Part shown: one piece after another, positions 9,786-28,406 of the stretch
Layout of the letters: each line of letters opens with the position of its first letter
Numbering within the stretch: position 1 is the stretch's first letter
Assembly (NCBI GenBank): GCA_964641355.1
Contig: CAZXND010000001.1
Coordinates: forward strand, 87,858 to 151,857
DNA from: an uncultured Gammaproteobacteria bacterium
GTDB taxonomy: Bacteria; Patescibacteriota; Microgenomatia; Levybacterales; GWA1-39-11
Reading direction: 5' to 3'
Length of the DNA stretch: 64,000 nucleotides
Position numbers and translations under genes: made by a program
The notes under the pieces: model-generated
The model's input: the letters and a program-made list of their open reading frames with translations, nothing else
Database searches by the model: none
What the model was told of the DNA's origin: nothing

Positions 9786-10511
9786 TTATACTCTTATTAA
9801 CCTTTTAGATAAATCCTCGATTGCGTTTTTCTGAAAAATTACATAAGAAGCATCTAAAACGTCGTAAGTGTTTAAATCATTTGCATTTTCTACTTCAAGA
9901 CCTTCAATGTTCTTTGAGGCTTTAAAAATACTTTTTGAACCCTTAGAAATAACGAGAAGGATTTTATTAACCTCACCTCTTTTGCTAACTAAATTTAACG
10001 CTTTCAATGCGCCACTTATTTCTCTAGTTTTTTTGATTGTATCATCTACTGCTAAAACTATAATTTTCTCGTTTTTTAGCTTTTCAGTAAGTACGGCTGA
10101 CAAAGATTTTGCTCTCATTTTTTTAGGTAGATCTAAGGAGAAATCCCTAGGTTTTGGTCCAAAAACTATTCCTCCACCCACGAATATCGGTGCTCTTATC
10201 CCTCCGTGTCTAGCCTTTCCCGTTCCTTTTTGTCTATATATTTTTCTAGTTGACCCTCTCACTTCTCCTCTTGTTTTAGTTGAAGCGTTTCCTTCTCTTT
10301 GGTTTGCAAGAAAAACTCTTACAGCTTGAGCTATTAAACTAGGAGCAGCTGTAACACTAAAAATTTCTTTGGGAAGAGTAATTTTTCCAACACTTTTACC
10401 GCTAAGATCCATAATTGAAAGAATAAGCTCACTTTGCGAATCCTTTACTCTTGTAGTTACTTTTTCTGTTTTTGGACTAACTTTGGGCATTTTCATCCTC
10501 CTTAATCTCAT
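9786..10511 (-). CDS. rplD: 50S ribosomal protein L4. The longest ORF is given; an internal start near 10412 (MDLSGKSVGKITL...) would give a canonical ~208 aa protein.
   Basis: L4 core QKGTGKARHGGIRAPIFVGGG. Confidence 0.8.
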   Translation of the reverse strand: MRLRRMKMPKVSPKTEKVTTRVKDSQSELILSIMDLSGKSVGKITLPKEIFSVTAAPSLIAQAVRVFLANQREGNASTKTRGEVRGSTRKIYRQKGTGKARHGGIRAPIFVGGGIVFGPKPRDFSLDLPKKMRAKSLSAVLTEKLKNEKIIVLAVDDTIKKTREISGALKALNLVSKRGEVNKILLVISKGSKSIFKASKNIEGLEVENANDLNTYDVLDASYVIFQKNAIEDLSKRLIRV

Positions 10512-11337
10512 GCTCTAATTCACTATCTGTCCTTATTTCCTCTGCTTTAGTCTCAGAAGAACTAACATCAGCAGTATCATTAACAGCGTTATCCTCAACA
10601 AAAACTTCCTCTTTTTCGACAACTGGCTCGGTTGATCCAACGATCTCCTCATCAGCTTTTACTTCAGATTGTAAAAGATCTTCTTTCTTATAGAGAGGCG
10701 TGAACTTTTTATATTCTCCTATCTTCTCGATTCGAACGATCGAACCAATTGACCCGGGAATAAGACCTTTTACACTCACTATCTGATCGGTCACATCCAT
10801 AACAACTAAATTCCTAATTGTTATTTGGTCGTTTCCCATTTTACCAGCCATTTTCTTACCTTTATAAACTCTTCCAGGAGTTGTTGTTTGACCAATAGAT
10901 CCAGGGGCTCTTTCTCTATCCGATTGTCCATGAGTTCTTGGACCTCCACGAAAACCCCATCTTTTTACTACACCCGCATATCCTTTTCCTTTGGATACTC
11001 CAGTAACTTTAACCATATCTCCTGGTTTCAAAATTTCAGTTGTCTTAAGTTCTTTACCAAGAACATCCACTTCAATATCTTCTGCTTTTAATTCTCTGAA
11101 AAAACGGGGAAATTTCTCCACTCCCGCTTTTTTGACATGTCCAGAAAGTGCTTTATTAAGCTTCTTTTTAAAGTCAAAACCAACTTGAACAGCATTGTAT
11201 CCATCTTTATCAGATGACTTTACTTGAGTAACAATATTTTCTGCCACATGAAGAATAGACAAAGGGATTCTTGTTCCATCCTCCAAAAAACCTTGTGTCT
11301 GCTCTCTTTTTTTACCAATAATGCTATTTATCTGCAT
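10477..11337 (-). CDS. rplC: 50S ribosomal protein L3 with an acidic C-terminal extension of about 75 aa
   Basis: 286 aa; L3 core, then a D/E-rich tail (VEKEEVFVEDNAVNDTADVSSSETKAEEIRTDSELEHEIKEDENAQS). Confidence 0.85.
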   Translation of the reverse strand: MQINSIIGKKREQTQGFLEDGTRIPLSILHVAENIVTQVKSSDKDGYNAVQVGFDFKKKLNKALSGHVKKAGVEKFPRFFRELKAEDIEVDVLGKELKTTEILKPGDMVKVTGVSKGKGYAGVVKRWGFRGGPRTHGQSDRERAPGSIGQTTTPGRVYKGKKMAGKMGNDQITIRNLVVMDVTDQIVSVKGLIPGSIGSIVRIEKIGEYKKFTPLYKKEDLLQSEVKADEEIVGSTEPVVEKEEVFVEDNAVNDTADVSSSETKAEEIRTDSELEHEIKEDENAQS

Positions 11338-11350
11338 TTTACTACTCTTA

Positions 11351-11381
11351 AAACAACAAAAAAGCGGCTCGCAAGCCGCCT
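11351..11381 (-). terminator. Rho-independent terminator or attenuator hairpin between the NUDIX gene and rplC
   Basis: The minus strand reads GCGGCTTGCGAGCCGC (6-bp GC-rich stem, 4-nt loop) followed by TTTTTTGTTGTTTT. Confidence 0.6.
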
Positions 11382-11513
11382 GAGTAAGAACTGACTGTTC
11401 TATTCGAGCTCGCTAACTAGTCAAAAACACCTCCCTCTTTTTTGTCATAAGAGTATCGATAATTATATACAAGCGTGAAGCTAAATGCAAGAGTAAAGTA
11501 AGAATTTCAAGGG

Positions 11514-11975
11514 TCACTTAGAAAGGGTCCTAAGAGCTTTTTCTGCATAAAATTTAATACCAGGAGAAAGTCCAATTTTTTTTAACTCATCAATATTAAA
11601 CCACTTAATCTCACCACTTTTTTCCTTTCCTCCTTCTTTAATTTTAGGGTTTTTAACAGTTGCAAAATAGGTCATGGTCACATGCTCATGTGTACTGTTA
11701 ATATTATGTCTATTTAAAAAATATGGAGGAACCAATTCTTGGTAGTTAATGGTTTTAAAAGTTTCTGGAAAAAGAGCTCTATCAAGCTCTATATCAAGCC
11801 CAACTTCTTCTTTGGCTTCCCTAATTATTGCTTGATTTGGGTCTTCATGAGGTTCAACATGACCTCCAATTCCCAACCAAATTCCATACTTATCATGTTT
11901 TCTAAGTAATACCTTGTTTTTATGAACAATAAAGACTTCAACTGTAAAATCAATCAAATCATTAATATGAGGCAC
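11514..11975 (-). CDS. NUDIX hydrolase
   Basis: 153 aa; Nudix box GGHVEPHEDPNQAIIREAKEEVGL (Gx5Ex7REuxEExGu). Confidence 0.8.
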   Translation of the reverse strand: MPHINDLIDFTVEVFIVHKNKVLLRKHDKYGIWLGIGGHVEPHEDPNQAIIREAKEEVGLDIELDRALFPETFKTINYQELVPPYFLNRHNINSTHEHVTMTYFATVKNPKIKEGGKEKSGEIKWFNIDELKKIGLSPGIKFYAEKALRTLSK

Positions 11976-12012: not shown

Positions 12013-12321
12013 CTACATCTTGATCTCAACATCAACACCTGCGGGAAGATCAAGATGAATTAAAGACTCAATTGTCTTCTCTGTAGGAGAAACTATATCG
12101 ATCAATCTTTTATGAGTTTTTATCTGGAAGTGTTCTCTTGAATCTTTATCAATAAAAGTAGATTTATTTACTGTAATTACTGTTCTTCTTGATGGTAGAG
12201 GAATAGGACCAAGTACTTTTGCACCAGTTCTTATTGCAGTATCTAATATCTGTTGACATGTCGAGTCAATTATTCTAGGATCATAACTTTTTAAGCGAAC
12301 CCTTATTCTTCCTTTAGGCAT
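12013..12321 (-). CDS. rpsJ: 30S ribosomal protein S10
   Basis: 102 aa, starting MPKGRIRVRLKSYD. Confidence 0.9.
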   Translation of the reverse strand: MPKGRIRVRLKSYDPRIIDSTCQQILDTAIRTGAKVLGPIPLPSRRTVITVNKSTFIDKDSREHFQIKTHKRLIDIVSPTEKTIESLIHLDLPAGVDVEIKM

Positions 12322-12357: not shown

Positions 12358-13539
12358 TTAAGCAGTTATTTTAGTTATAACTCCTGCTCCAACCGTTCGT
12401 CCACCTTCTCGGATGGCGAATCTCATTCCTTCTTCAACAGCTATGGGTACGATAAGTTTTACATTCATCTTGGTATTATCACCTGGCATTACCATTTCAA
12501 CACCTGCTTGCAGTGCAATCTCACCAGTTACATCAGTTGTACGAATATAGAATTGTGGTCTATAACCCGTGAAGAAAGGTGTGTGTCTTCCTCCTTCTTC
12601 TTTAGTCAAAACATAAACTTCTGCTTCAAATTCCTTATGAGGCGTAATACTTCCAGGCTTAGCAACAACTTGACCTCTCTCAACGTCTTCTTTTTCGATT
12701 CCACGAAGCAAAAGTCCTACATTGTCTCCTGCTTGCGCATCATCCAATTGCTTTCTAAACATTTCTACTCCAGTTACAACTGTGCTCTTTGTATCCTTAA
12801 TACCTACAATTTCAACAGTATCGTTTACTTTAACCTGACCTCTTTCAACTCTACCAGTTACAACAGTTCCTCTACCTTTAATAGAGAAAACATCTTCTAC
12901 GGGCATGAGGTATGGTTTATCAATATCTCTTTCTGGAGTTGGAATATATTCATCAACCTGATCCATAAGAGCCAAAATTTGTTTCTCTGCATCAGCATCA
13001 CCTTCAATTGCTTTAAGAGCTGATCCTCGAATTATTGGAGTAGTATCACCAGGATACTGATATTTATTTAGAAGTTCTCTTACTTCCATTTCAACAAGAT
13101 CGAGAAGTTCTGCATCTTGTACCATATCTGTTTTATTCATGAAAACTACAATTGCTGGGACTCCGACCTGCTTTGCAAGAAGAATATGTTCTCTTGTTTG
13201 AGGCATTGGACCATCTGGAGCTGAAACAACAAGGATTGCACCATCCATTTGAGCTGCACCTGTAATCATGTTCTTAATATAATCCGCATGACCTGGGGCA
13301 TCTATATGAGCATAATGTCTTTTTGGAGTTTCGTATTCAATATGAGTAATGTTAATAGTAACTCCACGAGCTTTTTCCTCAGGAGCATTATCAATATCCT
13401 CATATTTTCTTGCTTGAGCCATTCCTTGTTTGGAAAGGACTGTAGTGATAGCGGAAGTTAAGGTTGTCTTACCATGATCGACATGACCAATCGTTCCTAT
13501 ATTTAAATGTGGTTTGCTTCTAACAAATTTATCTGCCAT
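12358..13539 (-). CDS. tuf: Elongation factor Tu
   Basis: 393 aa with [15 protein letters not shown] and NKTD motifs. Confidence 0.95.
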
Positions 13540-13578
13540 TTTAAAAAAATAAACCCCAATTGTTTGGGTCTAATGACT

Positions 13579-13607
13579 ACTATACAAAATTTTTTTCCTC
13601 TCGTCAA
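13579..13607 (-). promoter_or_regulatory. Sigma70-like promoter for tuf
   Basis: The minus strand reads TTGACG, then a 17-nt spacer, then TATAGT, about 33 nt upstream of the tuf ATG. The -35 element sits inside a small inverted repeat (CCTCT-TGACG-AGAGG). Confidence 0.55.
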
Positions 13608-13664: not shown

Positions 13665-14708
13665 TTAAAAATATGAATTAGCCCAGAATGAAATCTTGTT
13701 TATACCTTTAGTGATCAGATAAGAATTCTTTGAATTTATAAAAGAAAAGTCCTCAATCCAAATTAAGTGCTTTTGATCGTTTTCAAAATATGTAATTTTA
13801 ATCGCATGAGATTTTTTTTCGTGTTCTATAGTACATCTGGAAAAAACACATTTATCTATAAAGTTTTTTTTAACATCTAAATAAGTGCGCGGCTTTCCTA
13901 TTTCCATAGATTCCCCTTTTTCATTAACCACCCAATCATAACCAAATAATCCGTAAATAATATTTAATTTCTCCTTGGGAACATCTCTTGAGAAATCATC
14001 AATCATTGTCTTGAAATCATATCCAAACAGTTCCAACCCCTCAAATGGGAAAGTAGGTCCCGGATCTCCACCAGCCTTAAATAAGTCATAAGACATTACA
14101 TAAACTTCATCTGCATATTTTGCCAAATCCCTTGGTTCAAATGGTCTAACTCTGTAATAATTATCTCCATAAATAGCAACCGCATAAGAAAAGTTATTTT
14201 CGTGAGCTTTTTTATAAAAAAATTGTGAAAAATTATTTATTCTATTGATTAAAGTATTAAAGGGAAGAGCTGAAATTTCTAAATCCAATAAAACACCGCT
14301 AAAACCATTCTCTCTTGCTATATTTAGGGTTTCATCTATTATATGAGCTTGAAGCTCTTTATTTTTAACGATCTCTAAATTATCTTTAGTATTCAAAAGT
14401 CTTAAAGTAAGAACTTTTTCTTTATTGGAAATTTTTTCACTAAAAAGAGCTATGTTTTTAAACCCTTGATCATTTCTATTTATTCCTTCCCTATTTGCTT
14501 CGATTCCAAAATATATGTATTTATCAAAAGAAGTATCTAAAACGTTTAAAGTCCAATAAGGAACAAATAAGGATCTTTTTATAACCAAAGAATGATTATT
14601 CTTTTTTTTAACTAGTGGAACAAATTTATCTGAGTTACTACTATTACTAATAGTAAAAAACAATAACCCAATCATAATAATCACTACTAGCAAAACAATT
14701 TTTTTCAT
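13665..14708 (-). CDS. Membrane-anchored GH18-like (chitinase-like TIM-barrel) glycoside hydrolase, tentative
   Basis: 347 aa with an N-terminal TM/signal. It has an FSGVLLDLE motif resembling the GH18 DGxDxDWE catalytic strand (Glu retained, second Asp replaced) and a VMSYD (MxYD) motif. Confidence 0.45.
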   Translation of the reverse strand: MKKIVLLVVIIMIGLLFFTISNSSNSDKFVPLVKKKNNHSLVIKRSLFVPYWTLNVLDTSFDKYIYFGIEANREGINRNDQGFKNIALFSEKISNKEKVLTLRLLNTKDNLEIVKNKELQAHIIDETLNIARENGFSGVLLDLEISALPFNTLINRINNFSQFFYKKAHENNFSYAVAIYGDNYYRVRPFEPRDLAKYADEVYVMSYDLFKAGGDPGPTFPFEGLELFGYDFKTMIDDFSRDVPKEKLNIIYGLFGYDWVVNEKGESMEIGKPRTYLDVKKNFIDKCVFSRCTIEHEKKSHAIKITYFENDQKHLIWIEDFSFINSKNSYLITKGINKISFWANSYF

Positions 14709-14803
14709 CTATAAATTATAACCCAAATTATTTTTATTTTTACTGGTTTTATAATAATTATATTTAATAAATAATTTGCATTTTTAAAAGAATCTGTTAA
14801 ACT

Positions 14804-15388
14804 ATGGGCGAAATGGAGGATGGATCACAAACCTCATATAGTTCTTTTTCTTCTCCGAATAGGAAGTCAGGTCGAAGTAAAAAAATCTTTATTTTATCAG
14901 CTCTTATTTTAGTTCTAGGTTTAATTGCTTTTGGAATATCCAGATCTATAGGAAATAAAGGGATTAGCTCTAACAAAACTCTTACTACCACTCCAACAAT
15001 GTCACCCACGACCACTCCTACTCCCACAGATATAATCGATACCACTCCAACACCTACTCTTAAAACGAAAACCACTCCAACACCTACTAAAATTTCGGGG
15101 AGTTCTGTTAAAAATCTTTCCATTCAGATATTAAATGGGTCTGGAGTTGTAGGGGCTGGAAAAAAGGCAGCTGATTTTCTTTCGGGACTTGGATATACAA
15201 TAACCTCAACAGGTAATGCTGACAACTTTGAATATAGTCAAACAACAATACAAATTAAGAGTGCAAAATCTAGTTTGCTTAATCAGCTCAAAAAAGATTT
15301 AACAGAGAATTACACTATTGGATCAACCTCTACAACTCTTTCCTCCTCTTCTTCAGCAGATGCTATTGTTATTATCGGAAAAGAATAA
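14804..15388 (+). CDS. Membrane-anchored LytR_C domain protein with a Thr/Pro-rich linker
   Basis: 194 aa: N-terminal TM, a TTPTPT-repeat linker, and a C-terminal LytR_cpsA_psr C-terminal-like domain (IQILNGSGVVGAGKKAADFLSGLGY...IQIKS). Confidence 0.6.
   Translation: MGEMEDGSQTSYSSFSSPNRKSGRSKKIFILSALILVLGLIAFGISRSIGNKGISSNKTLTTTPTMSPTTTPTPTDIIDTTPTPTLKTKTTPTPTKISGSSVKNLSIQILNGSGVVGAGKKAADFLSGLGYTITSTGNADNFEYSQTTIQIKSAKSSLLNQLKKDLTENYTIGSTSTTLSSSSSADAIVIIGKE
15011..15088 (+). repeat. Short tandem-like direct repeats encoding the Thr/Pro linker
   Basis: The 18-mer accactccaacacctact occurs at 15041..15058 and again at 15071..15088, with a related copy at 15011..15028. Confidence 0.7.
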
Positions 15389-16014
15389 TGAATAAAAGTA
15401 TAGTTGCACATTTCAAGAAAGTTGATCCAATCCTTGCAAGATTGGCAGAAAAAGTAGGACCACTTAATCTTCAACACAGAAGAACAAATAAAGCACTCGA
15501 CTCCGAAAATTTTTATTTTGCTTCCCTTACAAGTTCAATCATAGGACAACAATTATCAGGAAAAGTTGCAGATGTTATTTTTAAAAGATTTAAAGAATTA
15601 TTTCATAAAGAAAAAATAACCCCCGAATACGTATTAAAGCTGGATAAAGAAATAATTCGAAAAATAGGAATTTCTTATTCTAAGGTAAGTTACCTCAAAG
15701 ACCTTGCAAGTAAATTTAAAGAAGATGAAATAAAATACAGCAAATTAGATAAGCTATCAGATAAAGAAGTCACTGAAGAACTAATAAAAATCAAAGGAAT
15801 AGGTCCGTGGACCGCAGAAATGTTTTTAATGTTTACACTTGGACGAGAAGATATCTTTTCTCATGGAGATCTGGGGCTAAGAAGAGCAATCGAAAACATT
15901 TATCAAATTGAAAATCCGACTAGAGAACAGGTAGAGTCGATCTCTATAAAATGGTCTCCATATCGGTCTTACGCATCACTTGTACTTTGGAAAAGTCTGG
16001 ATATAAAATACTAA
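15388..16014 (+). CDS. alkA: HhH-GPD DNA glycosylase, AlkA-like (3-methyladenine DNA glycosylase II)
   Basis: 208 aa; HhH-GPD motif IKGIGPWTAEMFLMF...D. Its start overlaps the stop of the upstream gene. Confidence 0.65.
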   Translation: MNKSIVAHFKKVDPILARLAEKVGPLNLQHRRTNKALDSENFYFASLTSSIIGQQLSGKVADVIFKRFKELFHKEKITPEYVLKLDKEIIRKIGISYSKVSYLKDLASKFKEDEIKYSKLDKLSDKEVTEELIKIKGIGPWTAEMFLMFTLGREDIFSHGDLGLRRAIENIYQIENPTREQVESISIKWSPYRSYASLVLWKSLDIKY

Positions 16015-17027
16015 CTTTCACTTTTTTCAATATTAAATTGCTTCTGAAAATAGTTTGCTGCGACAATTCTAGAAACATATTCTTCAGTCATATCTCCCAA
16101 AACTCCATCTGAAATTTGTTTTTTTGCGTATGGAGATTCTACTAAATTTGCCAGATTTAGCTCGTTTTCAGAAATTACACTTGCTAGAGAGTCAAAATCC
16201 ACATTCCAATTTCCCACTTTTGCTCTAACAATATCTAGTAAATTTCCTGGACCTAAGTGATAATTCCAAAGACTCAAACCTACTTCAGGAATATAATCAT
16301 ACCAATCAGATAGATATTTTAAAGCAAACCTTATAGAGGTTTGGGGATCTCTCAAATCAAAGCTCTTCATATTTAATTTTTGCGCTAACTCCTTTGCAGT
16401 TTCCGGCATAACCTGTGTGAGTCCCGTCGCACCAGAAACTTCATTATAAGCGGCGGGGTTCCCTTCGCTTTCAACAAAAATTAAGCTTGGAATTAAATCG
16501 GGAATTCCAGAATTTAAAAATTCTTCACTCAACTGCATTTTAGCAATCTCCTCATTAACTAATTCTTTCCACTGCAATGATTTCTCAACAATCTCTTCCA
16601 AAGAGCGTCGATCTGGATATCTTTGATTTTCAAAATAACTAACGGCTTTATTTACCTTTCCATTTAAAACTTCTTTTTCTTTATTTTTATATTTCGGGAA
16701 AAGATCTTCAATTACTCCACTAATAGAGAGTTCGTTATTAGATATAAGCCCCTCACTATTTTTAAGAGAATTTTTATAAGCGTCTAAATTAGGCTGCTCA
16801 TCTTTTGGTTGTCTGTACGCCACGTCTGGAAGTTTTTGAGGATGTTCCAAAACTTGTTGAGACGAAGTACTTAGCTCATCAGAATTAAAACCAAGCCTCG
16901 CACCAACTGCAAATCCCAAAGCTCCTAAAAAACTATTCTTTATAAATTCACGCCTTTTAATTCTATTAATAGGCTTATTTTCTTTTCTCGTTTTACTTTT
17001 TAAATCAGGTTCTTTGGAATTTTCCAT
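16011..17027 (-). CDS. Lytic transglycosylase (SLT domain) with a twin-arginine signal peptide
   Basis: 338 aa; SLT catalytic motif ESEGNPAAYNEVSGATGLTQVMPETA; N-terminal KRREFIK followed by a hydrophobic stretch. Confidence 0.75.
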   Translation of the reverse strand: MENSKEPDLKSKTRKENKPINRIKRREFIKNSFLGALGFAVGARLGFNSDELSTSSQQVLEHPQKLPDVAYRQPKDEQPNLDAYKNSLKNSEGLISNNELSISGVIEDLFPKYKNKEKEVLNGKVNKAVSYFENQRYPDRRSLEEIVEKSLQWKELVNEEIAKMQLSEEFLNSGIPDLIPSLIFVESEGNPAAYNEVSGATGLTQVMPETAKELAQKLNMKSFDLRDPQTSIRFALKYLSDWYDYIPEVGLSLWNYHLGPGNLLDIVRAKVGNWNVDFDSLASVISENELNLANLVESPYAKKQISDGVLGDMTEEYVSRIVAANYFQKQFNIEKSES

Positions 17028-17036
17028 ATATAAATT

Positions 17037-17996
17037 TTAACCCTCAACAATTTCTACTTCTATCTCTGGCACAAATCCAAAAACATCACCTATTCTTCTT
17101 TTTATTTCATAGATTATAGAAGTGACATCATTAAAACTAGCTTCACCTAAATTAACAATAAAGTTAGGATGCTTATTACTAACCTGAGCATTTCCTACTT
17201 TGTATCCTTCAAGACCAAGTCTTTTTATCATATATCCAATACTCACTTTACCATACCAATTATTTTCAACTTTTTCCTTTACGTCAGGCCAAACTGAAAG
17301 CACTTTTTCAATATTTTCTTTTTCGTTTATATTTTTAAATACGGATCCAGTATTTGGATAATCTAAAGGATGATGTTCTCGTCTATAATTTATATTTGAA
17401 TAATAAGCTTCTTTTGCTTTCTCAACTCCTTTGGGGTTGGTTTTTGTAAGATTTAACGATACTGAAAGAATTATTAAATTCTTATTCTCTTTTATATAAC
17501 TATTTCTGTAAGAAAAATTTAGAGCATCGCTTCTTATTTTTTTAACTTCAAGTGTATTTATATCAATAACCTCAATCTCAAAGACCGAATCCTTAACTTC
17601 TCCTCCGAAAGCCCCAACATTTCCACGTACTGCTGCACCAACTGTTCCAGGCAATCCTCCTGCCCATTCTAACCCGATCAAATTATTGTCAAATGAAAAA
17701 TTTATTAAATCATCAAGAACTTCTCCTGCAAAAGCAGTGACAATGTTACCCTCAACTTTAAAAGAATACCCATTAGAAGAAGCTAGTTGAATTACTGCGC
17801 CTGGATAATCCTCGTCTGTAAAAATTAAATTAGTTCCAATTCCTACTACAAAAATTTTATTTATGTCCTGTTGTTTTAAGAATTTTAAAGCGTCTAAAAC
17901 TTCTTTCGCATCTTTAACCTTAATATAATAACTAACCTTACCACCGATTTCATACCAAAGAACTTGTGAGATAATATAATCCTTATTTATCAACAT
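17037..17996 (-). CDS. murB: UDP-N-acetylenolpyruvoylglucosamine reductase
   Basis: 319 aa; FAD-binding domain with GIGTNLIF and GGLPGTVGAAV motifs. Confidence 0.8.
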   Translation of the reverse strand: MLINKDYIISQVLWYEIGGKVSYYIKVKDAKEVLDALKFLKQQDINKIFVVGIGTNLIFTDEDYPGAVIQLASSNGYSFKVEGNIVTAFAGEVLDDLINFSFDNNLIGLEWAGGLPGTVGAAVRGNVGAFGGEVKDSVFEIEVIDINTLEVKKIRSDALNFSYRNSYIKENKNLIILSVSLNLTKTNPKGVEKAKEAYYSNINYRREHHPLDYPNTGSVFKNINEKENIEKVLSVWPDVKEKVENNWYGKVSIGYMIKRLGLEGYKVGNAQVSNKHPNFIVNLGEASFNDVTSIIYEIKRRIGDVFGFVPEIEVEIVEG

Positions 17997-17999
17997 AAA

Positions 18000-18122
18000 T
18001 CAAATGAAGACAAGAGTGAATGCAGTAACAAACCCTACAAAACTTATTACTGTCATTGGAAGTAGTATCAAAAAAATAAGACAACCAAGCTCACTGGTAA
18101 CATCATCGAATATTTCTTGCAT
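18000..18122 (-). CDS. Possible 40-aa hydrophobic small protein immediately upstream of murB
   Basis: Manual translation gives MQEIFDDVTSELGCLIFLILLPMTVISFVGFVTAFTLVFI, with its stop 3 nt before the murB ATG. No homology is known to me. Confidence 0.25.
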   Translation of the reverse strand: MQEIFDDVTSELGCLIFLILLPMTVISFVGFVTAFTLVFI

Positions 18123-18191
18123 AGCCTAAATATACGTCTGCAACATTCTCTAAGTCAAGTAAAAAACATGTAAAAGAAAAGAGGCTTAAGA

Positions 18192-18449
18192 TTAATAGGG
18201 TTTTGCAGGAAGAGGAATCCTAAACACTCTACCAATTATCAATTTTCTTTCCTGGTAAATCCTTTCGCACCTTACACCGTTCAATTTATCTTGAGCTTCT
18301 CTTAGAGCGTCTAAAGAAATTCCTGAAAGTTTTCCATTTTGAATATCTGATATTGAACTTCGAAGCATGCCTTCTGCATTATCTGCTCTTTTTAAATGTT
18401 CTGCTAAAACCTCTTCTCTAGATTGTGTTATAACTTCAACTAATTTCAT
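18192..18449 (-). CDS. Hypothetical 85-aa protein downstream of aclA
   Basis: ORF with a 24-nt gap to the aclA stop; no recognisable motif. Confidence 0.35.
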   Translation of the reverse strand: MKLVEVITQSREEVLAEHLKRADNAEGMLRSSISDIQNGKLSGISLDALREAQDKLNGVRCERIYQERKLIIGRVFRIPLPAKPY

Positions 18450-18473
18450 GAGCTTAATATAAAAATTTTCTTA

Positions 18474-20255
18474 TTACTTGTCAATAGTTGCATCAAAAAC
18501 CTGATCCTCATCAAGTCTAAAAATTCCTTCATCTAATCTTTTTTGATCTAAATAATGTGCTATAAAACCTACAGATCTAGACAATACAAATAGAGCATTA
18601 AAAAATTCAGCATCAATGAGTTTTTGTAATTCTTCAATGGTAAGGTTTTCTTTTTCACTCAAAATATCCAACAATACCGCTGCAATAACTCCATCAACAT
18701 TTAGGATTAGATTTCCCTTTTTCTCTGTGGTTACTTTTTCTACAGCAAGAGCAAAATCAGAAAATTTATTTTCTTTAAGATTTTCTTTGAATTTTAGGAT
18801 TTCAATAACTCTTGGATCAGGAGCATCAACTCTGTATTTTTTATGTCCAATTCCTGAAATATATTCTCTTTTAGAAGCGAACTCTTCAACAAAATCTGAT
18901 GGGTTTTTTTCATCAATTACTCCCTTAAACCAATTTTCTGCTGCTTGATTTATCGCTCCTCCAAACCGTGAACCAATCGTTAAAAGGCCAGAAGAAAGAG
19001 AGGATACAAGATCCTTTCCTGCTCTAGCAGTAATAATCGTATTTACCGCACCTGATACATAAGGACCGTGATCTACAGAAAGTTTTAATACTAAGTCAGT
19101 GAAATCTTCAAGTTCTTTTGATTTAGATTTTCTTCCCAAGAAGAGAGAAATAACTATATAAGAAAAAGAGTGTTCACCTGTAAACTTCACTAAATCTTCC
19201 CCAAGTATTTTTACATTTCCATCAACATCTTGAGATATACTTGTGGCAATTAGAGCATGACGTCTATCTTCCATCTCTCTTATTCTACTATAGTCCGACT
19301 CGGTTTTCACTTTTTCTTTTTCAATATTATTTATTAATTCTATAAATTCAGAAAAATTTTCTGCCACCATAACTCCTGCTTCGGAAAGAATTTTCTTTTT
19401 ACTTCTCGCTGATTCATCGACATCTTTTGCTATCGCCTTTGCATGACCAAATTGTGGGGGATTAGGAAAAACTTCTGCGACACTTCCTGCAATATAAGCG
19501 ATAACATTTTTGGTAATTTTTTTCTCGTAAATCAATTTTGCAATCTCGTATTCATCTACACCACCCAGTTCACCAAAATAGATAATGTGCTTTGTATTTC
19601 CATCTTTTTGAGCGGATAAAAATGCTTCAGTTGGAGTCAAAATGGGAAACCTTTCTCCTCCAAAAGAAAGTGCGAAAGAGAGCCTAAGACCAGAATTTGT
19701 TACCATTCTTATAATTTCATTTGTCATCCCTCCGGAAGAACTCATAACAGCTACATTTCCAGAGTCAAAAAGCGCTGAATCGATAAGTTGTCTTGGGTCA
19801 ACTCCTCCAATCGCACCAAGCTTTAAAATTTTAGGAATAATAAATCCAACACTAGCTGGACCTATTAAAAATTTATTATTATTTACAACTTTCGTATAAA
19901 GGTATAAAGAATGTTTTTCTGGCACCTCTTCAGCAAAAACTACCCCACCTAAGATGTTTTCAAAATCTAATAATTCATTCGAGTAATTAAGCGTTCTTCG
20001 TCCTGATGACAAATTGAGAAATAGGTTTGTATTTTCTGGAATTTCTTCAAACTCTGGAAAAACAGGGATCATAATTTCTTGCTTTCCAAAAAAATATCTT
20101 TCGTATTTTCTTCCAGAAGCAAATATTCCTACAATGCTAGGTTCTTTTTTACCAGCAAGAAAATCAAAATCAAGTATTGATTGGATTATAGAGGGATAAG
20201 ACCCAATTGTAACTATTTTAGCCTCGTATTTTCTTAATTTTTCAATATCTAACAT
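18474..20255 (-). CDS. aclA: ATP-citrate lyase large subunit (CoA-binding/SucD-like domain fused to a citryl-CoA lyase/citrate synthase-like domain)
   Basis: 593 aa; phosphohistidine motif QFGHAKAI. The C-terminal domain reads GIGHKKYRVDAPDPR...ALAVEKVTTEKKGNLILNVDG...FVLSRSVGFIAHYLDQKRL, almost identical to the corresponding ACLY segments. Confidence 0.85.
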   Translation of the reverse strand: MLDIEKLRKYEAKIVTIGSYPSIIQSILDFDFLAGKKEPSIVGIFASGRKYERYFFGKQEIMIPVFPEFEEIPENTNLFLNLSSGRRTLNYSNELLDFENILGGVVFAEEVPEKHSLYLYTKVVNNNKFLIGPASVGFIIPKILKLGAIGGVDPRQLIDSALFDSGNVAVMSSSGGMTNEIIRMVTNSGLRLSFALSFGGERFPILTPTEAFLSAQKDGNTKHIIYFGELGGVDEYEIAKLIYEKKITKNVIAYIAGSVAEVFPNPPQFGHAKAIAKDVDESARSKKKILSEAGVMVAENFSEFIELINNIEKEKVKTESDYSRIREMEDRRHALIATSISQDVDGNVKILGEDLVKFTGEHSFSYIVISLFLGRKSKSKELEDFTDLVLKLSVDHGPYVSGAVNTIITARAGKDLVSSLSSGLLTIGSRFGGAINQAAENWFKGVIDEKNPSDFVEEFASKREYISGIGHKKYRVDAPDPRVIEILKFKENLKENKFSDFALAVEKVTTEKKGNLILNVDGVIAAVLLDILSEKENLTIEELQKLIDAEFFNALFVLSRSVGFIAHYLDQKRLDEGIFRLDEDQVFDATIDK

Positions 20256-20260
20256 ATTTT

Positions 20261-21439
20261 TTAAGACACATAATTAATAGATGGTCTAACAATATCCGTT
20301 AACGGAATTTCTGCACCAAAAACCTCACCTAGGAGGTTTTCTTTATCTAGAAAATCTCTAATAAGAGCTAAACCTTCTTTATCGTGTGGACCACCTCGTC
20401 TAACAAAAATCTTAACTCTCTGAGCCCTTAATTCACTTGAAACTTCCGAAAGCGCATTAATAATACCCTTAAATGTGACTCTTACATCAGTGAAATTTGC
20501 AACACCACCACCGATTATCAGAGCCTTTTTCGGAGCACGAGATTTTAAAAGAAGTAAAAGAAGATTTTTCGCATAAATGTAAGTTTCTTCTTTATTGGGA
20601 TTTCCACTATATTCTCCGTAATTTGCGATAAGACTGGCTTCACCTTCAAGAAATACCTCATCAGCAAGAACCACACTTCCACCACCACCGGACAATAAAA
20701 GAAAAATCGCACCATCAGGGTTTAATACTTCAAGACTAAAAGACGAAGCACTTTCTTCTGAAAGTTTTTGAATATTAAGCTCTTCTTCTGTTTTTTTTCT
20801 ACTATTAAACTCGACAAAATCTCTTTCATTCCACTTATCTTCAACAAAAAAAATAGCTGAAGCATCTACTTCAACGGCACAATCTAAAATAAAAATTTTT
20901 TCATCAATAACTCTAAGGGGGTTAATTTCCAAAAATGAAAAATAATATTCTTCAAATGAATCAACTATCTTTTCAAGTATTCCCTCTTCTATTCCTAAAA
21001 ATATTTTTACTTCAACAAGATCTGATTCTTTTCTTACAAGAGTTCTCCTAATATTATCTTCTTCTTCAATATCTACTCCTCCTTTATCGGAATAAAGAAG
21101 CATAAGACCATCTCTAACTCTTTGAATTGATAAATAATAATCCTTGGCTTTATCAGAAGAAATAAACTCTTCAATTATAAATTTTTCATATCCTTGCTTA
21201 TTAAACTCTTCAAGTTTTTCTTTAATCTGATCCGGAGAGAGGTTTAACCCCACAAGACCCTGTTTAAATCTTTTTTTTACTCCTTGATCAACTTTTACTA
21301 CATATTTTTTAGAATTATCTAGTATTAAATCTGGAATAGAGTTTTCATTAAAATCAAACTTTACTGAAGTATTAAGCAATTTAAGCTCTGTGTAAATTAT
21401 TTCTTTTGCACGGAATTCTGAAAGTTTCTTTCTAGCCAC
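20261..21439 (-). CDS. aclB: ATP-citrate lyase small subunit (ATP-grasp/SucC-like)
   Basis: 392 aa; FLEINPL, ANYGEYSGNP and IIGGGVANFTDVRVTFKGII...IFVRRGGP match hallmark ACLY/AclB motifs. Confidence 0.85.
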   Translation of the reverse strand: MARKKLSEFRAKEIIYTELKLLNTSVKFDFNENSIPDLILDNSKKYVVKVDQGVKKRFKQGLVGLNLSPDQIKEKLEEFNKQGYEKFIIEEFISSDKAKDYYLSIQRVRDGLMLLYSDKGGVDIEEEDNIRRTLVRKESDLVEVKIFLGIEEGILEKIVDSFEEYYFSFLEINPLRVIDEKIFILDCAVEVDASAIFFVEDKWNERDFVEFNSRKKTEEELNIQKLSEESASSFSLEVLNPDGAIFLLLSGGGGSVVLADEVFLEGEASLIANYGEYSGNPNKEETYIYAKNLLLLLLKSRAPKKALIIGGGVANFTDVRVTFKGIINALSEVSSELRAQRVKIFVRRGGPHDKEGLALIRDFLDKENLLGEVFGAEIPLTDIVRPSINYVS

Positions 21440-21489: not shown

Positions 21490-23601
21490 TTATTGTTCTG
21501 AAATTCGACCTGTAAAAGTAGACTTTGCAAGCATTTGATCAACAATATTTTTTGGAACCGGCTCATAGTGAGAAGGTTCCATATAGTACGTTGCTCTTCC
21601 TTGCGACATGCTTCTAAGAGTTGTTGCATAGCCAGATAATTCTGCAAGAGGAACTTGAGATAAAATAATTCTTGCATTTCCACGTTCCTCAGTTCCAACT
21701 ATTTGCGCTCTTTTTGAAGAAAGATCACCAATTACGTCTCCCATGAATTCTTCCGGAGTGGTAACTTCAACTTTCATAATTGGCTCGAGAAGAACAAGAC
21801 CTGCCTTTCTCGTTGCTGTTTGAAAAGCCATACTTCCGGCAATTTTAAAGGCAACATCTGAAGAATCTACATCATGGAAAGATCCATCGTATAAAGTAAC
21901 TTTAATATCAGTCATTTGATATCCAAGAAGTACTCCTTTTTCTAAAGCCTCTTTAACTCCTTTTTCAACAGAACCTATAAATTCTGCGGGAATCGCACCT
22001 CCTTTTATCGCGTTAACGAAAGAAAAACCCTCCCCTCTTCCTAAAGGCTCAACTCTAAGAAGTGCATGACCATACTGTCCACGTCCTCCAGTTTGTTTGA
22101 TATATTTACCTTCTCCTTCGGCGTTCTTTTCTATCGTCTCTTTATAGGCGACTTGTGGCGCTCCAACATTCGCCTGAACATTAAATTCTCGATTCATACG
22201 ATCGACCATTATTTCTAATTGTAATTCTCCCATTCCAGAAATAATTGTTTGAGCTGTTTCATGGTTTGTTTTTACTCTAAAAGTCGGATCCTCTTCCATA
22301 AGTCTTTTAAGTGCATACCCAAGTTTTTCCTGATCTGATTTTGTTTTTGGCTCAATAGCCAAAGAAATAACTGGTTCTGGAAATGTAATCTTTTCAAGAA
22401 CAATCGGCTTTACTTCATCACACAAAGTATCACCTGTAACCGTATCCTTCAACCCAACAACTGCAACAATCTCTCCTGCATATGCTTCTTTAATTTCCTC
22501 TCTTTGATTAGAATGCATAAGAAGAATTCTTCCAACCCTTTCTCTAATATTCTTAGTGCTGTTATAAATATAAGATCCTGCAACAATTTTTCCAGAGTAT
22601 ACCCTAACAAATGTAAGCTTCCCTACGTGTGTATCAATTTGAACTTTAAATGCAAGTCCGCAGAAAGCTTCTTCTGGAACTAGGTTTCTTACCTCTTCTA
22701 CTGCTGTCTTAGGGTTAACTCCTTTTATCTCTTTAAGATCGAGAGGCGAAGGTAGGTAATCTATAACGGCATCAAGAAGTGGTTGAACTCCTTTATTTCT
22801 AAGAGACGATCCAGCATATGTTGGAACTAATTTGTATGCAATCGTAGCTGCTCGAAGTGATTTCTTTAACTCTTCTACTGAGATCTCTTCGTTATTTAGA
22901 TATTTCTCAAGAAGAGAATCATCATTCTCAGCTATTTTTTCTATCATTTTATGTCTTGCTTCTTCTATTTCTGCTTCCATTCCAGAAGGAACCTCATCGG
23001 TCACATCAAATTTCGCACCTAATTCTTCACCTGTCCAAACAATCGATTTCCTATTTAAAAGATCGTAGACACCTTTAAACTCCTGCTCGCGACCAATAGG
23101 AACAACCATTGCAACAGGATTGGCTCCCAGTCTATCAACAACGCTTTTAAGAGTTTTATTAAAGTCTGCACCAAGCTTATCCATTTTATTAATAAAACAA
23201 ATTCGAGGAACTTTGTATTTATCTGCTTGTCTCCAAACTGTTTCTGACTGAGATTGAACCCCTTCTTCAGCATCAAGGACAGTAACTGCACCATCAAGTA
23301 CTCTTAGAGATCTCTCGACTTCTGCGGTAAAATCTACGTGACCAGGAGTGTCAATAAGATTAATTCTGTAGTCTTTCCAAAAAGTAGTAGTAGCAGCTGA
23401 TACAATAGTTATTCCACGCTCTCTCTCCTGATCCATCCAGTCCATAACTGTATTTCCCTCATCAATATCACCGATTTTATAAGTTTTTCCTGTGTAATAA
23501 AGGATTCTCTCAGAAGTCGTAGTTTTACCCGCATCAATATGCGCAATTATTCCGATATTTCTTATTTTGTCTAATGGTAACATTCGATCATTATCAGCCA
23601 T
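21490..23601 (-). CDS. fusA: Elongation factor G
   Basis: 703 aa, starting [20 protein letters not shown]. Confidence 0.95.
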
Positions 23602-23665: not shown

Positions 23666-25198
23666 CTACTCCCACTCCATTGTTGCAGGAGGTTTTGTTG
23701 AAATATCATAAACAACACGAGAAACTCCAGGTACCTCATTTACTATTCTTGAAGAAATTCTTTGCAATACTTCATAAGGAATCCTCGCCCATTTCGATGT
23801 CATAATATCTTGAGACTCAACAACTCTAAGAGCTATAACTTCTCCAAAAAATTTCTCATCTCCTTTAACTGCTGTTGAAAAAGCACCACTTAAAACAGGG
23901 AAGGAAAGAAAAATATGAGACAAAATTTTTGCCTCATGAAGCTCTTCGATTACTATTTTATCCGCCAATTTCTCCTTTTCAAGCCTGTCTTCCGTGACAT
24001 CCCCCCTTATTCTTATTGCGTATCCCGGCCCTGGAAATGGTTGACGATTAATAAACTCTTCTGGTAAACCCAAAATTCTCCCTATTTTTTTAACCTCATC
24101 TTTATAAAACTCTCTAAGAGGTTCAATAAGTTTTAATTTCATATTTTCAGGTAAACCTCCTACATTATGGTGACTTTTTATTTTTGATGAGTGCTTACTC
24201 CCTTGACTCTCTATAACATCTGAATAGATTGTACCTTGAAGTAAAAATTTTACATCCTTACCCTGACTGACCAACCTCTCCATCTCGCGCTCAAAGATTT
24301 CAATATAGAAATTCCCAATTATTCTTCTTTTCTCTTCCGGATCATTTACTCCCTTTAATTTCTTAAGCATTTCTTCTTTCACTTCACAAATAATTGGTTC
24401 TATTCCAAGCTTGGAAAATATTTTTTCCAAATGTTCTTTTGTATCAAAGCGCATCAAGCCGTTATCAACATAGATTGGAATAAATTTCTCTCCGATTGCA
24501 GAAGCCGTAAGAAATCCCGCCACCGTAGAATCAACACCGCCAGAAATCGCACCAATAACAAACGAGTTGCCAGCCCTATTTTTTATGTCGTTTATCAGGC
24601 CTTTAACATTTACCTCGTGAGTCATTAAATCAAGATCACAGATATCAATAAAATTTTTTAAAATTATATTACCGAAGTCTGTATGTTCAACTTCCGGATG
24701 AAATTGCACACCAAAAATTTTTCTACTTGAATCCTCAACGAACGCATAAGAAACGTGATCTGTAGATCCAAGGGTTTCAAATCCAAAAGGAATACTCATA
24801 ATTTCATCTCCATGACTCATCCATACAATAAATTTATTTTCCAAACCTCTCAAAATTCTGGACTGCGAGTTCTTAACCTTAAGCTGTAACTCTGCAGGAC
24901 CAAACTCTTTCTTTCCAGAAATAACCTTTCCTCCTAGCAAATAAGATGTAAGTTGCATTCCATAGCATATTCCAAGTATTGGGATTCCTTTTGTAAAAAT
25001 TGAAATGTCTACTTTAGGAGCGTCAGCTGAGTAAACAGAGGATGGTCCTCCTGATAAAATTATCCCAGAATAATCCTGATTTTCTAAACTAAAAAGTGCC
25101 TCTTCAGGGTTTACTATTTTTGACTTTACACCCAACTCACGAAGTCTTCTTGAAATAAGATGGGTGGTTTGCGATCCAAAATCTACAATTAAAATCAT
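23666..25198 (-). CDS. guaA: GMP synthase (glutamine-hydrolysing)
   Basis: 510 aa; class I GATase domain (GICYGMQ) plus an ATP-PPase domain with SGGVDS. Confidence 0.9.
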   Translation of the reverse strand: MILIVDFGSQTTHLISRRLRELGVKSKIVNPEEALFSLENQDYSGIILSGGPSSVYSADAPKVDISIFTKGIPILGICYGMQLTSYLLGGKVISGKKEFGPAELQLKVKNSQSRILRGLENKFIVWMSHGDEIMSIPFGFETLGSTDHVSYAFVEDSSRKIFGVQFHPEVEHTDFGNIILKNFIDICDLDLMTHEVNVKGLINDIKNRAGNSFVIGAISGGVDSTVAGFLTASAIGEKFIPIYVDNGLMRFDTKEHLEKIFSKLGIEPIICEVKEEMLKKLKGVNDPEEKRRIIGNFYIEIFEREMERLVSQGKDVKFLLQGTIYSDVIESQGSKHSSKIKSHHNVGGLPENMKLKLIEPLREFYKDEVKKIGRILGLPEEFINRQPFPGPGYAIRIRGDVTEDRLEKEKLADKIVIEELHEAKILSHIFLSFPVLSGAFSTAVKGDEKFFGEVIALRVVESQDIMTSKWARIPYEVLQRISSRIVNEVPGVSRVVYDISTKPPATMEWE

Positions 25199-25201
25199 TT
25201 T

Positions 25202-26344
25202 TTAGTAATTTTTGCCGGGATTTGTAATTAGCAAACCGTGTGGATGGCTTTCTGTAAGACTTGCTTGTGTAATCTGAATGAATTTTGCCTTATTCCAAAG
25301 ATCACCAATACTCTTTGCGCCTATATAATACATTCCAGATTTTATTCCTCCCATACTTTGCTCAACTAACTGTTCAAGAGATCCTTTTATGGGAACTAGC
25401 CCTTCTACGCCTTCTGCAACTAAAATCTTATCTTTATAATAATCCTTTCCATGATATTCGTCTTCAACTTTTATTTTTGCACCGCGTTCCATAGCACCAA
25501 TCGAACCCATTCCTCGATATTCTTTAAAAAGATACTCTGCTATATTTGCTTTTACAATACTTTGGAAACGTGATGGAACTTGATCCTTTGTAAGTTTTAC
25601 AACTTTTCCAGGTGATTCTTCACTTGATGCAAAAAAGTTTCCCATCATGACTGTCGATGCACCAGCAGCAAGCGCTTTAATCATATCTCCAGAATATTTT
25701 ATTCCTCCATCAGCAATAACTGGCACGTTATTTTTTTTAGCAATATTACAAACATCGAGAAGAGCGGTAATTTGTGGAACTCCCATCCCTGAGATTACTC
25801 TTGTTGTACAGATTGCTCCTGGACCCATACCGACTCTGAGAGCATCAGCGCCAGCTTTAATTAGTGCCTCAGCGGCTTCTCCGGTTGCAATATTTCCAGC
25901 AATAACGTCTATATCTCTATATTTATTCTTGATATATCCGATTATTTCCAAAATGTTTTTCGTAAATCCATGAGCGCTATCAACAACTAAAACATCCACA
26001 CCAGCAAGGGCTAAAGCCTCAACTCTTTCTTCAAATCCCTTGTTTGTTCCAACAGCTCCTCCAACTAAAAGATTTTCCTGTTTAACTTTTAAGACTTCGT
26101 CAGCTTGATCCTTTATAGAAAAATTGCGATGGATTATTCCGATTCCTCCAAGACGAGATAAGGCAATGGCAAGACGCGATTCAGTTACTGTATCCATGGG
26201 AGCAGAAACTAAAGGAATTTCAATTTTGATTCTTCTCGTGAGATTAGTGGAAAGGTCTATATCACTTCTTGAGAAATCGGTGTATCCAGGAAGAAGTAAG
26301 ACATCGTCGAATGTAAGACCGTATGAGAAGTTTTGGGGATCCAT
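25202..26344 (-). CDS. guaB: IMP dehydrogenase lacking the CBS subdomain (GMP reductase not excluded)
   Basis: 380 aa TIM barrel with catalytic loop GPGAICTTR. There is no CBS pair between VKQ and LLVGGAVG. Adjacent to guaA. Confidence 0.75.
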   Translation of the reverse strand: MDPQNFSYGLTFDDVLLLPGYTDFSRSDIDLSTNLTRRIKIEIPLVSAPMDTVTESRLAIALSRLGGIGIIHRNFSIKDQADEVLKVKQENLLVGGAVGTNKGFEERVEALALAGVDVLVVDSAHGFTKNILEIIGYIKNKYRDIDVIAGNIATGEAAEALIKAGADALRVGMGPGAICTTRVISGMGVPQITALLDVCNIAKKNNVPVIADGGIKYSGDMIKALAAGASTVMMGNFFASSEESPGKVVKLTKDQVPSRFQSIVKANIAEYLFKEYRGMGSIGAMERGAKIKVEDEYHGKDYYKDKILVAEGVEGLVPIKGSLEQLVEQSMGGIKSGMYYIGAKSIGDLWNKAKFIQITQASLTESHPHGLLITNPGKNY

Positions 26345-26407
26345 GATTCATATTATATCAAAAGTATTTTGAAGTCAATATTCGCTTTATATGCTAGAAT
26401 ATGCAGT

Positions 26408-27962: not shown

Positions 27963-27970
27963 ATATTAGA

Positions 27971-28396
27971 CTAGGCTTGAGGGCCCCCTCCTTGTCCTTT
28001 AGCTCCATATTTAGACCTTGAAGTTTTTCTTCCTTCAACACCCGCTAGATCAAACTTCCCTCTAACCAAATGATATTTTACACCAGGAAGATCACGAACC
28101 CTACCACCCTTTACAAGCACTATACCGTGTTCAGCTAGATTATGTCCTATACCCTGGATATATGCTGTAACTTCTTCTCTGTTTGAAAGTTTTACTCTCG
28201 CGACTTTTCTAAGAGCTGAATTCGGTTTTTTAGGAGTCATCGTTCTAACAAGTGTAACTACTCCTCTTTTCTGTGGAGCCGGAATCTCCTTATATTCTCT
28301 TTTTTTCGCATTAAAAATATCTCTAAGAGCTGTCGCTTTAATTTTCTTTTTTCTTTTTTGTCTTCCTCGTCTTACGAGTTGATTTAGTGTAGGCAT
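27971..28396 (-). CDS. rpsL: 30S ribosomal protein S12 with a short Gly-rich C-terminal extension
   Basis: I place the start at the canonical [12 protein letters not shown]. The longer ORF-track start would overlap rpoC. Confidence 0.85.
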
Positions 28397-28406
28397 AGAA
28401 GGGCTA

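Follow-up and report, generated by a model that had tools for sequence, protein, structure and literature searches.

Few gene adjacencies in bacteria are as conserved as that of the genes for the ribosomal proteins S10 (rpsJ) and L3 (rplC). In the stretch of 64,000 nucleotides analysed here (contig CAZXND010000001.1, hereafter the window) this adjacency is broken: the minus strand carries, in this order, tuf, rpsJ, a gene for a Nudix hydrolase, a 176-nt spacer and rplC, and the spacer ends in a hairpin with a T-run shortly before rplC. The arrangement raises the question whether the additional gene and the terminator-like hairpin belong together and what they mean for the expression of the ribosomal protein genes further downstream. 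From a comparison with related loci we consider it probable that two independent features meet at this junction: a clade-wide attenuator of rplC composed of promoter, leader and terminator, and next to it a hypervariable slot in which the Nudix gene is the local cargo.

A predicted promoter and terminator in the spacer upstream of rplC

The spacer (11338-11513, minus strand) separates the Nudix gene from rplC (10477-11337, minus strand; Pfam Ribosomal_L3), which heads the rplC-to-map operon. Within the spacer we found a predicted sigma-70-type promoter, TTGCAT-17-TATAAT (11490-11462, minus strand), with the -35 box at 11490..11485 and the -10 box at 11467..11462. It is located 23 nt past the stop codon of the Nudix gene and is the sole TTGCAT-N17-TATAAT site in the 64-kb window.

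Related loci were collected in two ways. A scan for L3 in species-representative genomes yielded relatives in which rpsJ and rplC are separated by differing genes, and a metagenome scan with an S10 alignment yielded 80 loci with an S10 77–90% identical to that of the window. The comparison comprised 55 distinct related loci with their upstream regions. When the 230 nt upstream of rplC were compared in all loci, the promoter motif CTTGCATTT-N13-TATATAAT was found to be conserved in front of rplC across the relatives. A promoter-like site is located upstream of the terminator in 45 of the 55 loci, the distance between the -10 box and the ATG being about 100–135 nt. We infer from the sequence that the rplC promoter is active.

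Downstream of the promoter the hairpin AGGCGGCT-TGCG-AGCCGCTT (11381..11362, minus strand) comprises 8 pairs, 5 of them G-C, and a 4-nt loop. Directly 3' of it follows the U-tract TTTTTTGTTGTTTT (11361..11348, minus strand), which ends about 10–14 nt before the ATG of rplC. A G+C-rich stem-loop of this kind, with a U-run directly behind it on the transcribed strand, is a predicted intrinsic terminator. The hairpin alone is not above chance: an 8-kb region of the window contains 4 terminator-like sites, with 4.0 ± 2.4 expected from shuffled sequences. It is the conservation that gives it weight. A hairpin with T-run in front of rplC was detected by script in 54 of the 55 distinct loci and by eye in the 55th (L011). 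In 48 loci it lies within 45 nt of the rplC ATG, and family-wide the terminator ends 10–30 nt before the start codon.

Between the terminator and rplC there is no room for a further promoter. Therefore all rplC-to-map transcripts would have to read through the terminator, which would make it an attenuator. An initial annotation of this DNA had pointed out the 176-nt spacer with a GC-rich hairpin and T-run directly before rplC, and the canonical intrinsic-terminator motif at 11381..11348 bears this out. It had also suggested that the hairpin attenuates read-through from tuf and rpsJ or acts as a regulated terminator. A regulated role is still the best reading of the site. As a barrier to read-through from tuf and rpsJ only, the hairpin was described too narrowly, since the promoter in the spacer (11490..11462) had been missed; with a promoter at this position the hairpin would attenuate transcripts from the rplC promoter too.

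A conserved putative leader RNA between promoter and terminator

We aligned 32 distinct leaders of one subtype (type A), that of the window included (alignment A2). RNAalifold applied to the MAFFT alignment recovered the terminator stem alone, with compensatory changes in 4 of 7 pairs. Single-sequence folds showed in addition a hairpin, P1, with a near-invariant AGGAGGUGAU box (GGAGG) in or beside its loop. P1 was defined by hand from these folds, followed by realignment with a covariance model (alignment A3), and the model R1 was built from P1 and the terminator. In the model-fitted alignment A3 94% of the cells of the terminator stem are paired and 5 of its 8 pairs carry compensatory two-sided changes; for the base helix of P1 compensatory changes were likewise counted in 5 of 8 pairs. 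The covariation score amounts to 0.256, compared to 0.190 ± 0.011 in shuffles (none of 500 reach the observed value) and at most 0.147 in slid controls.

R1 has a single match in the window, extending from the -10 box up to where the T-run ends (11355-11467, minus strand; 63.8 bits, E=1e-8). In the relatives there was one match per locus, in every case directly upstream of rplC and on the same strand (41 matches, with Levybacteria and Levyibacteriota loci among them). Two loci from sister species of the window, L095 and L096, are outside the R1 seed and scored 47.6 and 42.4 bits. They have the same leader subtype as the window and a terminator stem that is different, yet still paired. By its position between the predicted promoter and the first ribosomal-protein gene, its conservation across species and its covariation-backed structure the element qualifies as a candidate cis-regulatory leader. 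Leaders of the other subtypes, B to F, have promoter and terminator in common and differ in their middle parts. The fold of the whole spacer (z=+0.66 relative to shuffles) is uninformative on its own.

The box in the P1 hairpin resembles a Shine-Dalgarno (SD) motif. In the window it reads GAGGGAGGTG (11428..11437, minus strand); the family consensus AGGAGGUGAU is a perfect complement, over 9–10 nt, of the canonical 16S rRNA 3' tail and is near-invariant in type-A leaders. Variation is far lower in the box than in its intramolecular partner, and there is no consistent start codon at SD spacing. It might bind the 30S subunit or direct translation of a mini open reading frame (ORF) of 5 codons: most type-A leaders retain GUG-N12-stop in frame, with a single 3-nt indel, and the frame is broken in L037, L040 and L077. 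The GUG of this mini-ORF falls inside the SD-like box and other possible starts are inconsistent. With a start codon that is unusable or inconsistent we keep a leader peptide only as a possibility. A function of the box as remote SD for rplC across the folded terminator is unlikely, given a linear distance of about 95 nt and no supporting geometry.

Some further observations concern the leader region. GC-rich inserts of about 40–170 nt are present in this AT-rich region in L045 (L045:10195-10232), where the insert lies inside the P1 loop, and between terminator and rplC in the other cases (L072:1540-1690, L049:4895-5018, L064:6270-6400). They may be small mobile elements. In the window an inverted repeat of 18 nt with 83% complementarity joins 11343-11360 and 11438-11455. 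The 5' end of the leader (UACUCUUAUGACAAAAAA) can pair with the region behind the terminator including the AAGAG just before the rplC ATG, a pairing that could mask the rplC start region in read-through transcripts. The UACUCUU/AAGAGUA part of the inverted repeat is not conserved in L095 and L096. Moreover, a weak match to R1 (L098:2406-2489; 18.4 bits, E=0.5) lies between tuf and rpsJ in a Levybacteria locus and could be due to chance, a remnant or a second copy.

A possible competing fold without terminator

In type-A leaders GGAGGUGA...CUACAUAG can pair with the terminator loop, the 3' arm and the first U residues, and in 18 of the 32 leaders this pairing is the minimum-energy structure. 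In 19 of the 32 the fold without terminator equals or exceeds the terminator fold in stability, the median difference in free energy (ddG) being -1.7 kcal/mol. In this energy test only the terminator pairs were penalised; an earlier version that kept the 5' arm unpaired proved too stringent, gave a misleading picture and was dropped. Compared to shuffled upstream sequence the alternative fold is more competitive than expected (mean z=-2.0), 21 of the 32 leaders being below -1.64. Within the proposed antiterminator 88% of the cells pair, as opposed to 44–61% when the partners are slid. Among the subtypes B to F some show an above-chance alternative fold and others do not.

In the window member the candidate antiterminator strand is the leader box AGCGAGCTCG (AGCGaGCUCG; 11414..11405, minus strand), which is complementary to the 3' arm of the terminator. 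Together with CGAGCCGCU it gives a local match of 9 bp (RNAduplex -14.9 kcal/mol, z=-2.7 relative to shuffles).

A hypervariable slot between rpsJ and rplC

Where a locus contains both genes, as little as 125 nt or more than 5 kb can lie between the stop codon of rpsJ and the start of rplC. We found 82 ORFs in these gaps, which fall into about 53 unrelated clusters. Cargo with a Pfam match includes peptide deformylase (Def) in 6 loci and a protein with an MGMT-type DNA-binding domain (MGMT-like) in 5 loci, furthermore Fic, a Gp49-like toxin with an HTH antitoxin, an Asp/Glu racemase, an rve transposase, an EamA transporter, PCMT as well as GDPD, Kelch and Big_7 proteins. Many ORFs in the slot have no Pfam match. 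Terminator, promoter and a leader of about 100 nt are also found before rplC in relatives without any cargo (gaps of 125–290 nt), and in one of these (L077) the promoter follows almost immediately on the rpsJ stop. Because the promoter, leader and terminator of rplC are constant, the variable slot is the stretch from the rpsJ stop to the -35 box of the rplC promoter. The terminator thus belongs to rplC and not to the Nudix gene, because it is present without cargo as well as with entirely different cargo.

The homologues of the window's L3 are named Levybacteria, Levyibacteriota and Patescibacteria, and the rpsJ|rplC junction is also broken in three loci that hold such named homologues. One of the three (L099) is labelled Parcubacteria, in conflict with the names Levybacteria and Patescibacteria on the nearest L3 homologues, and this label was not relied on. 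In a relative labelled Saccharibacteria (L013) rpsJ and rplC are contiguous. The slots of the Levybacteria-like loci L017, L018 and L019 (gap 668–674 nt) and L098 (674 nt) contain short ORFs only. One 74-aa ORF among them is probably a decayed Fic gene, being related to the full-length Fic that occupies the L038 slot.

The Nudix gene

In the window the slot is occupied by a gene with a GTG start that encodes 153 aa (11514-11975, minus strand). Its translation contains an intact Nudix box, G38-HVEPH-E44-DPNQAII-R52-E53-A54-K-E56-E57-V-G59-L60, which fits GX5EX7REUXEEXGU, and matches Pfam PF00293 (NUDIX) with 53.3 bits at a gathering cutoff of 21.1 (E=3.6e-14). None of the NCBIfam equivalogs, including MutT, RppH, NudB, NudG and NudI, reached its cutoff. 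The best NCBIfam match was NF006961 with 34.2 bits (cutoff 103); the MutT model scored 29 (cutoff 148) and RppH about 20 (cutoff 139). The curated equivalog cutoffs thus gave no assignment to MutT, RppH, NudB, ADP-ribose pyrophosphatase or another specific subfamily. Among solved structures 3f6a comes closest, an uncharacterised structural-genomics entry ('Hydrolase, NUDIX family') that aligns over nearly the full length (E=2e-17).

The gene starts 37 nt past the rpsJ stop and has no SD; a TATAAT can be read about 7 nt upstream of its GTG. In the window no terminator was found in the gap from rpsJ to the Nudix gene or in that from the Nudix gene to the rplC promoter. Because rpsJ and the Nudix gene are not separated by a terminator, co-transcription with tuf-rpsJ is likely. 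The Nudix gene could be expressed by this co-transcription, from a weak leaderless-type promoter of its own, or by both.

The Nudix protein of the window belongs to a family that is widespread in the candidate phyla radiation (CPR) and in DPANN. In the rpsJ-rplC slot a Nudix gene was found only in the window species and in the sister species L095 and L096, with Nudix proteins 58% and L3 proteins 69–71% identical to those of the window. The nearest homologues outside the slot (61–62% identity, from CPR and DPANN) are located in unrelated gene neighbourhoods. Around the Nudix gene no convincing flanking repeats in the manner of a target-site or att-like signature were found. Judging by this distribution, we regard the Nudix gene as lineage-specific cargo in the hypervariable slot.

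The initial annotation had raised the possibility that the Nudix insertion exists only in this assembly, as a gene mis-joined into the ribosomal cluster. The order rpsJ-Nudix-rplC is present in four other independent assemblies from different samples, with 99.75–100% DNA identity and an identical Nudix protein. A fifth contig, 96% identical, has the Nudix gene after S10 and breaks off where that gene ends. The same order is shared by the two diverged sister species. All of this contradicts a mis-join, which is so improbable that we consider a misassembly ruled out. Other statements of the annotation fared differently. Pfam domains and translation agree with the 153-aa Nudix protein with intact box between rpsJ and rplC, and the suggested classification with profile models leads to the NUDIX superfamily, where it ends, no subfamily cutoff being reached. 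The suggested comparison of synteny placed the gene in the window species and its two sisters, the other loci holding different cargo or none. The notion that Nudix gene and terminator were inserted as one unit had to be given up: terminator, promoter and leader exist without cargo or with other cargo.

A model for the control of rplC and its alternatives

Taken together, we favour, with moderate confidence, a clade-wide attenuator of rplC beside an independent slot that holds the Nudix cargo. According to this model a conserved cis unit consisting of a sigma-70-type promoter, a leader of about 100 nt and an intrinsic terminator would head the rplC-to-map operon throughout a Levybacteria-like clade of the CPR/Patescibacteria. 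In the main leader type P1 would present or partly sequester the SD-like box, and GGAGGUGA...CUACAUAG would pair instead with the terminator loop, 3' arm and U-tract, giving a near-isoenergetic fold without terminator. The balance between the two folds would set the output of the operon. An effector would stabilise the state with P1 and terminator; by analogy, this effector is most likely one of the operon's own ribosomal proteins, L4 or L3. The same terminator would also end transcripts arriving from tuf-rpsJ with or without cargo. In the window it would end read-through from tuf-rpsJ-Nudix, because no other terminator-like site is present between rpsJ and the hairpin. The Nudix gene would most likely be expressed via read-through from the tuf promoter.

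Several points weigh against this model. The transcription start site, the 3' ends and the read-through of the rplC unit are inferred. Covariation was counted in an alignment fitted to the model structure, which favours that structure. A hairpin P2 in the linker is not significant (mean z=-0.8) and is not claimed, and the antiterminator helices show two-sided covariation in just 2 of 16 pairs. Leaders of subtypes B and C have no antiterminator signal above shuffles. In the leader of the window itself the terminator fold is favoured by 4.2 kcal/mol and the alternative fold has z=-0.06 relative to shuffled upstream sequence; therefore the switch is supported at the level of the family and not for the window member. 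On the side of the cargo, the Nudix proteins of the window and the sister slots do not form a clade in a neighbour-joining tree (4 of 100 bootstraps), and synteny is what suggests a single ancestral insertion.

The strongly terminator-favouring leader of the window, with an alternative fold not above chance, and the missing antiterminator signal in subtypes B and C would equally suit a passive insulator, that is, a constitutive leaky terminator that ends tuf-rpsJ(-cargo) transcripts with a fixed read-through, the leader being conserved for promoter-proximal or mRNA-stability constraints. The effector of a switch is proposed by analogy only, and a small hairpin with U-run before the tuf ATG hints at a general style of 5' untranslated regions (UTRs) in this genome, both in line with an insulator. 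Yet in 45 of 55 loci the terminator has a promoter-like site upstream, so that transcription would meet the terminator about 90 nt after its start, which is wasteful if unregulated. P1 covaries, in 21 of 32 type-A leaders the alternative fold exceeds the shuffled expectation, and the near-invariant SD-like box would be left unexplained, so that we consider a passive insulator rather unlikely. The box is at the centre of another explanation, in which the leader senses ribosomes: AGGAGGUGAU would pair either with the terminator 3' arm and U-tract, as antiterminator, or with the anti-SD of a free 30S subunit. The terminator 3' arm with the U-tract resembles the 16S tail (UCAC plus U-run), and an idle 30S subunit capturing the nascent box would block the antiterminator and allow the terminator to form. 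If true, spare ribosome capacity would feed back on transcription of the ribosomal-protein operon of about 30 genes without a ribosomal-protein repressor. Between box and terminator 3' arm/U-tract none of 8 pairs is two-sided; 7 of the 8 vary on the terminator side only and 1 departs via unpaired cells. We regard ribosome sensing through this box as distinctly improbable.

Two further explanations assign the conserved element or the cargo to other functions. A unit of about 100 nt from promoter to terminator has the canonical shape of a small RNA (sRNA) gene, P1 is conserved with GGAGG in its loop, and there is a single copy per genome region; the leader could thus be an independent gene for a trans-acting RNA of about 95 nt, for example one that binds the 30S subunit via an exposed SD-like loop, with rplC transcribed by read-through. 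Against this stands its invariable location 10–30 nt before rplC on the same strand, whatever the cargo. With no space for a separate rplC promoter a role in cis is unavoidable, and one in trans could only be additional; a separate sRNA gene is very unlikely. To the same low degree we believe in a functional coupling, in which the tuf/S10 unit recruited the Nudix gene, together with the terminator, so that nucleotide housecleaning or RNA 5'-end processing is linked to how the translation apparatus is expressed. The gene has been kept between rpsJ and rplC in three diverged species, no terminator cuts it off from rpsJ, and several other cargos are also maintenance enzymes (Def, PCMT, MGMT-like). 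On the other hand, more than 50 loci have terminator and leader but no Nudix gene, the cargo is a mixed set with toxin-antitoxin pairs, a transposase of an insertion sequence, Fic and unmatched ORFs, the nearest non-slot Nudix homologues are found in unrelated contexts, and RppH and MutT scores are far below their cutoffs. The initial annotation had proposed that nucleotide housecleaning may be tied to translation-factor expression in this way; in view of about 53 unrelated cargo clusters, homologues elsewhere and no subfamily assignment, there is no specific support for a link of the Nudix gene to translation.

Genes surrounding the junction

The upstream transcription unit begins with tuf for EF-Tu (393-aa ORF; 12358-13539, minus strand), and GTP_EFTU domains occur at the equivalent position in homologous loci. 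It is followed by rpsJ (12013-12321, minus strand; Pfam Ribosomal_S10, E=3.9e-33). The region upstream of tuf (13540-13607, minus strand) has a similar miniature design, with a promoter-like TTGACG-17-TATAGT at 13607..13579 (CTCTTGACG-17-TATAGT) and a small hairpin CCCAA-ACAA-TTGGG with T-run that ends 3 nt before the ATG. A hairpin with T-run before the start codon may be a general 5'-UTR style of this genome.

Downstream, the rplC-to-map operon of about 30 genes extends over about 11 kb to position 82 and corresponds to a fused S10-spc operon; L4, L16, L14, L5, S5, L15, SecY, Adk and Map were confirmed. L3 has an acidic C-terminal extension of about 70 aa (10477-10700, minus strand) without Pfam match. 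The length and sequence of this extension differ among the relatives, with L3 proteins of 264 to 366 aa. A recognisable SD was found in only 10 of 56 genes of the window, and rplC is among those without. Many start codons are preceded at 7–12 nt by a TATAAT-like box (e.g. in the genes that end at 42857, 26344 and 47921), an indication that mRNAs with no leader or a very short one are widespread.

The rpoBC-str-S10 supercluster is usually contiguous. In the window it is broken at several junctions besides rpsJ|rplC (13540-35496, minus strand). After rpsL-rpsG (27483-28438) follow genes for a plus-strand Xaa-Pro peptidase, IMP dehydrogenase and GMP synthase (23666-27493), then fusA (21490-23601). 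The interval between fusA and tuf (13665-21439) contains two ATP-citrate-lyase-like genes, murB, an SLT transglycosylase, more ORFs and a GH18-like gene. The ATP-citrate-lyase-like pair (18474-21439, minus strand), one gene with Citrate_bind and ATP-grasp and the other with Citrate_synt and Ligase_CoA domains, is unexpected for a reduced genome of the CPR type.

Significance and comparison with known systems

We searched Rfam 15 and found no family at gathering threshold in the whole window and nothing relevant at E≤10 for the region or at E≤1 for four leader subtypes. A match to RyhB (E=1.2) was weak, covered the terminator only and was discarded. By this measure the predicted promoter-leader-terminator unit of rplC was previously uncatalogued. 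To our knowledge gene regulation in CPR/Patescibacteria is almost unexplored, and we know of no ribosomal-protein leader for CPR in Rfam 15. Because a single unit heads the whole rplC-to-map operon, it would be the main control point of ribosome production in these reduced genomes. A comparative set of more than 40 leader sequences in several subtypes is at hand, and the SD-like box leads to a testable hypothesis of direct ribosome sensing. The slot, placed beside a strong predicted promoter, would show, in a natural case, how accessory genes come to be expressed in streamlined genomes. In annotation it calls for caution: a single gene within a ribosomal cluster is no proof of functional coupling.

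The closest functional analogue is the leader of the E. coli S10 operon, where L4 and NusA stimulate transcription attenuation. This L4-interacting RNA mediates L4-stimulated termination at a terminator within the leader, for which a hairpin upstream is required (PMC3616713). Both are 5' leaders of an operon with rplC-rplD-rplW-rplB and further genes, so that a long ribosomal-protein operon is, or would be, controlled transcriptionally, and in both a hairpin precedes an intrinsic terminator that lies a few tens of nucleotides ahead of the start codon of the first gene. In contrast, the E. coli leader precedes rpsJ, whereas rpsJ is outside the operon here. It has no antiterminator and no SD-like box, whereas the rplC leader family shows a competing terminator-free fold and has such a box. 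There is no detectable homology in sequence or structure (no Rfam match), and a role of L4 at the rplC leader is proposed by analogy.

Ribosomal-protein leaders of Firmicutes, e.g. the L20 leader of B. subtilis, switch between terminator and antiterminator, presumably through autogenous protein binding. They have in common with the switch proposed for the rplC leaders mutually exclusive terminator and alternative helices before a ribosomal-protein operon, and differ in operon, structure and phylum; no homology was found to them.

Candidates located directly upstream of rplC come from other lineages. The ribosomal-leader catalogue by Eckert and Weinberg lists only an L4 candidate from Archaeoglobi at this position and no motif from CPR (PMC7247131), and conserved RNA structures upstream of rplC have been reported in cyanobacteria (PMC12873609). 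Both are comparable to the leader described here in that they stand directly before rplC where rplC, not rpsJ, starts the operon. They differ in lineage, they are not described there as promoter-terminator attenuators with an SD-like box, and no Rfam 15 family matches the leader of the window.

The gene arrangement itself has parallels. In cyanobacteria, plastids and archaea tufA and rps10 are linked and rplC belongs to a separate operon. As in these lineages, S10 goes with EF-Tu in the window and L3 would start its own transcription unit. The difference is that here both units have stayed adjacent, and that within one clade the junction between them has become a hypervariable slot of 0 to more than 5 kb.

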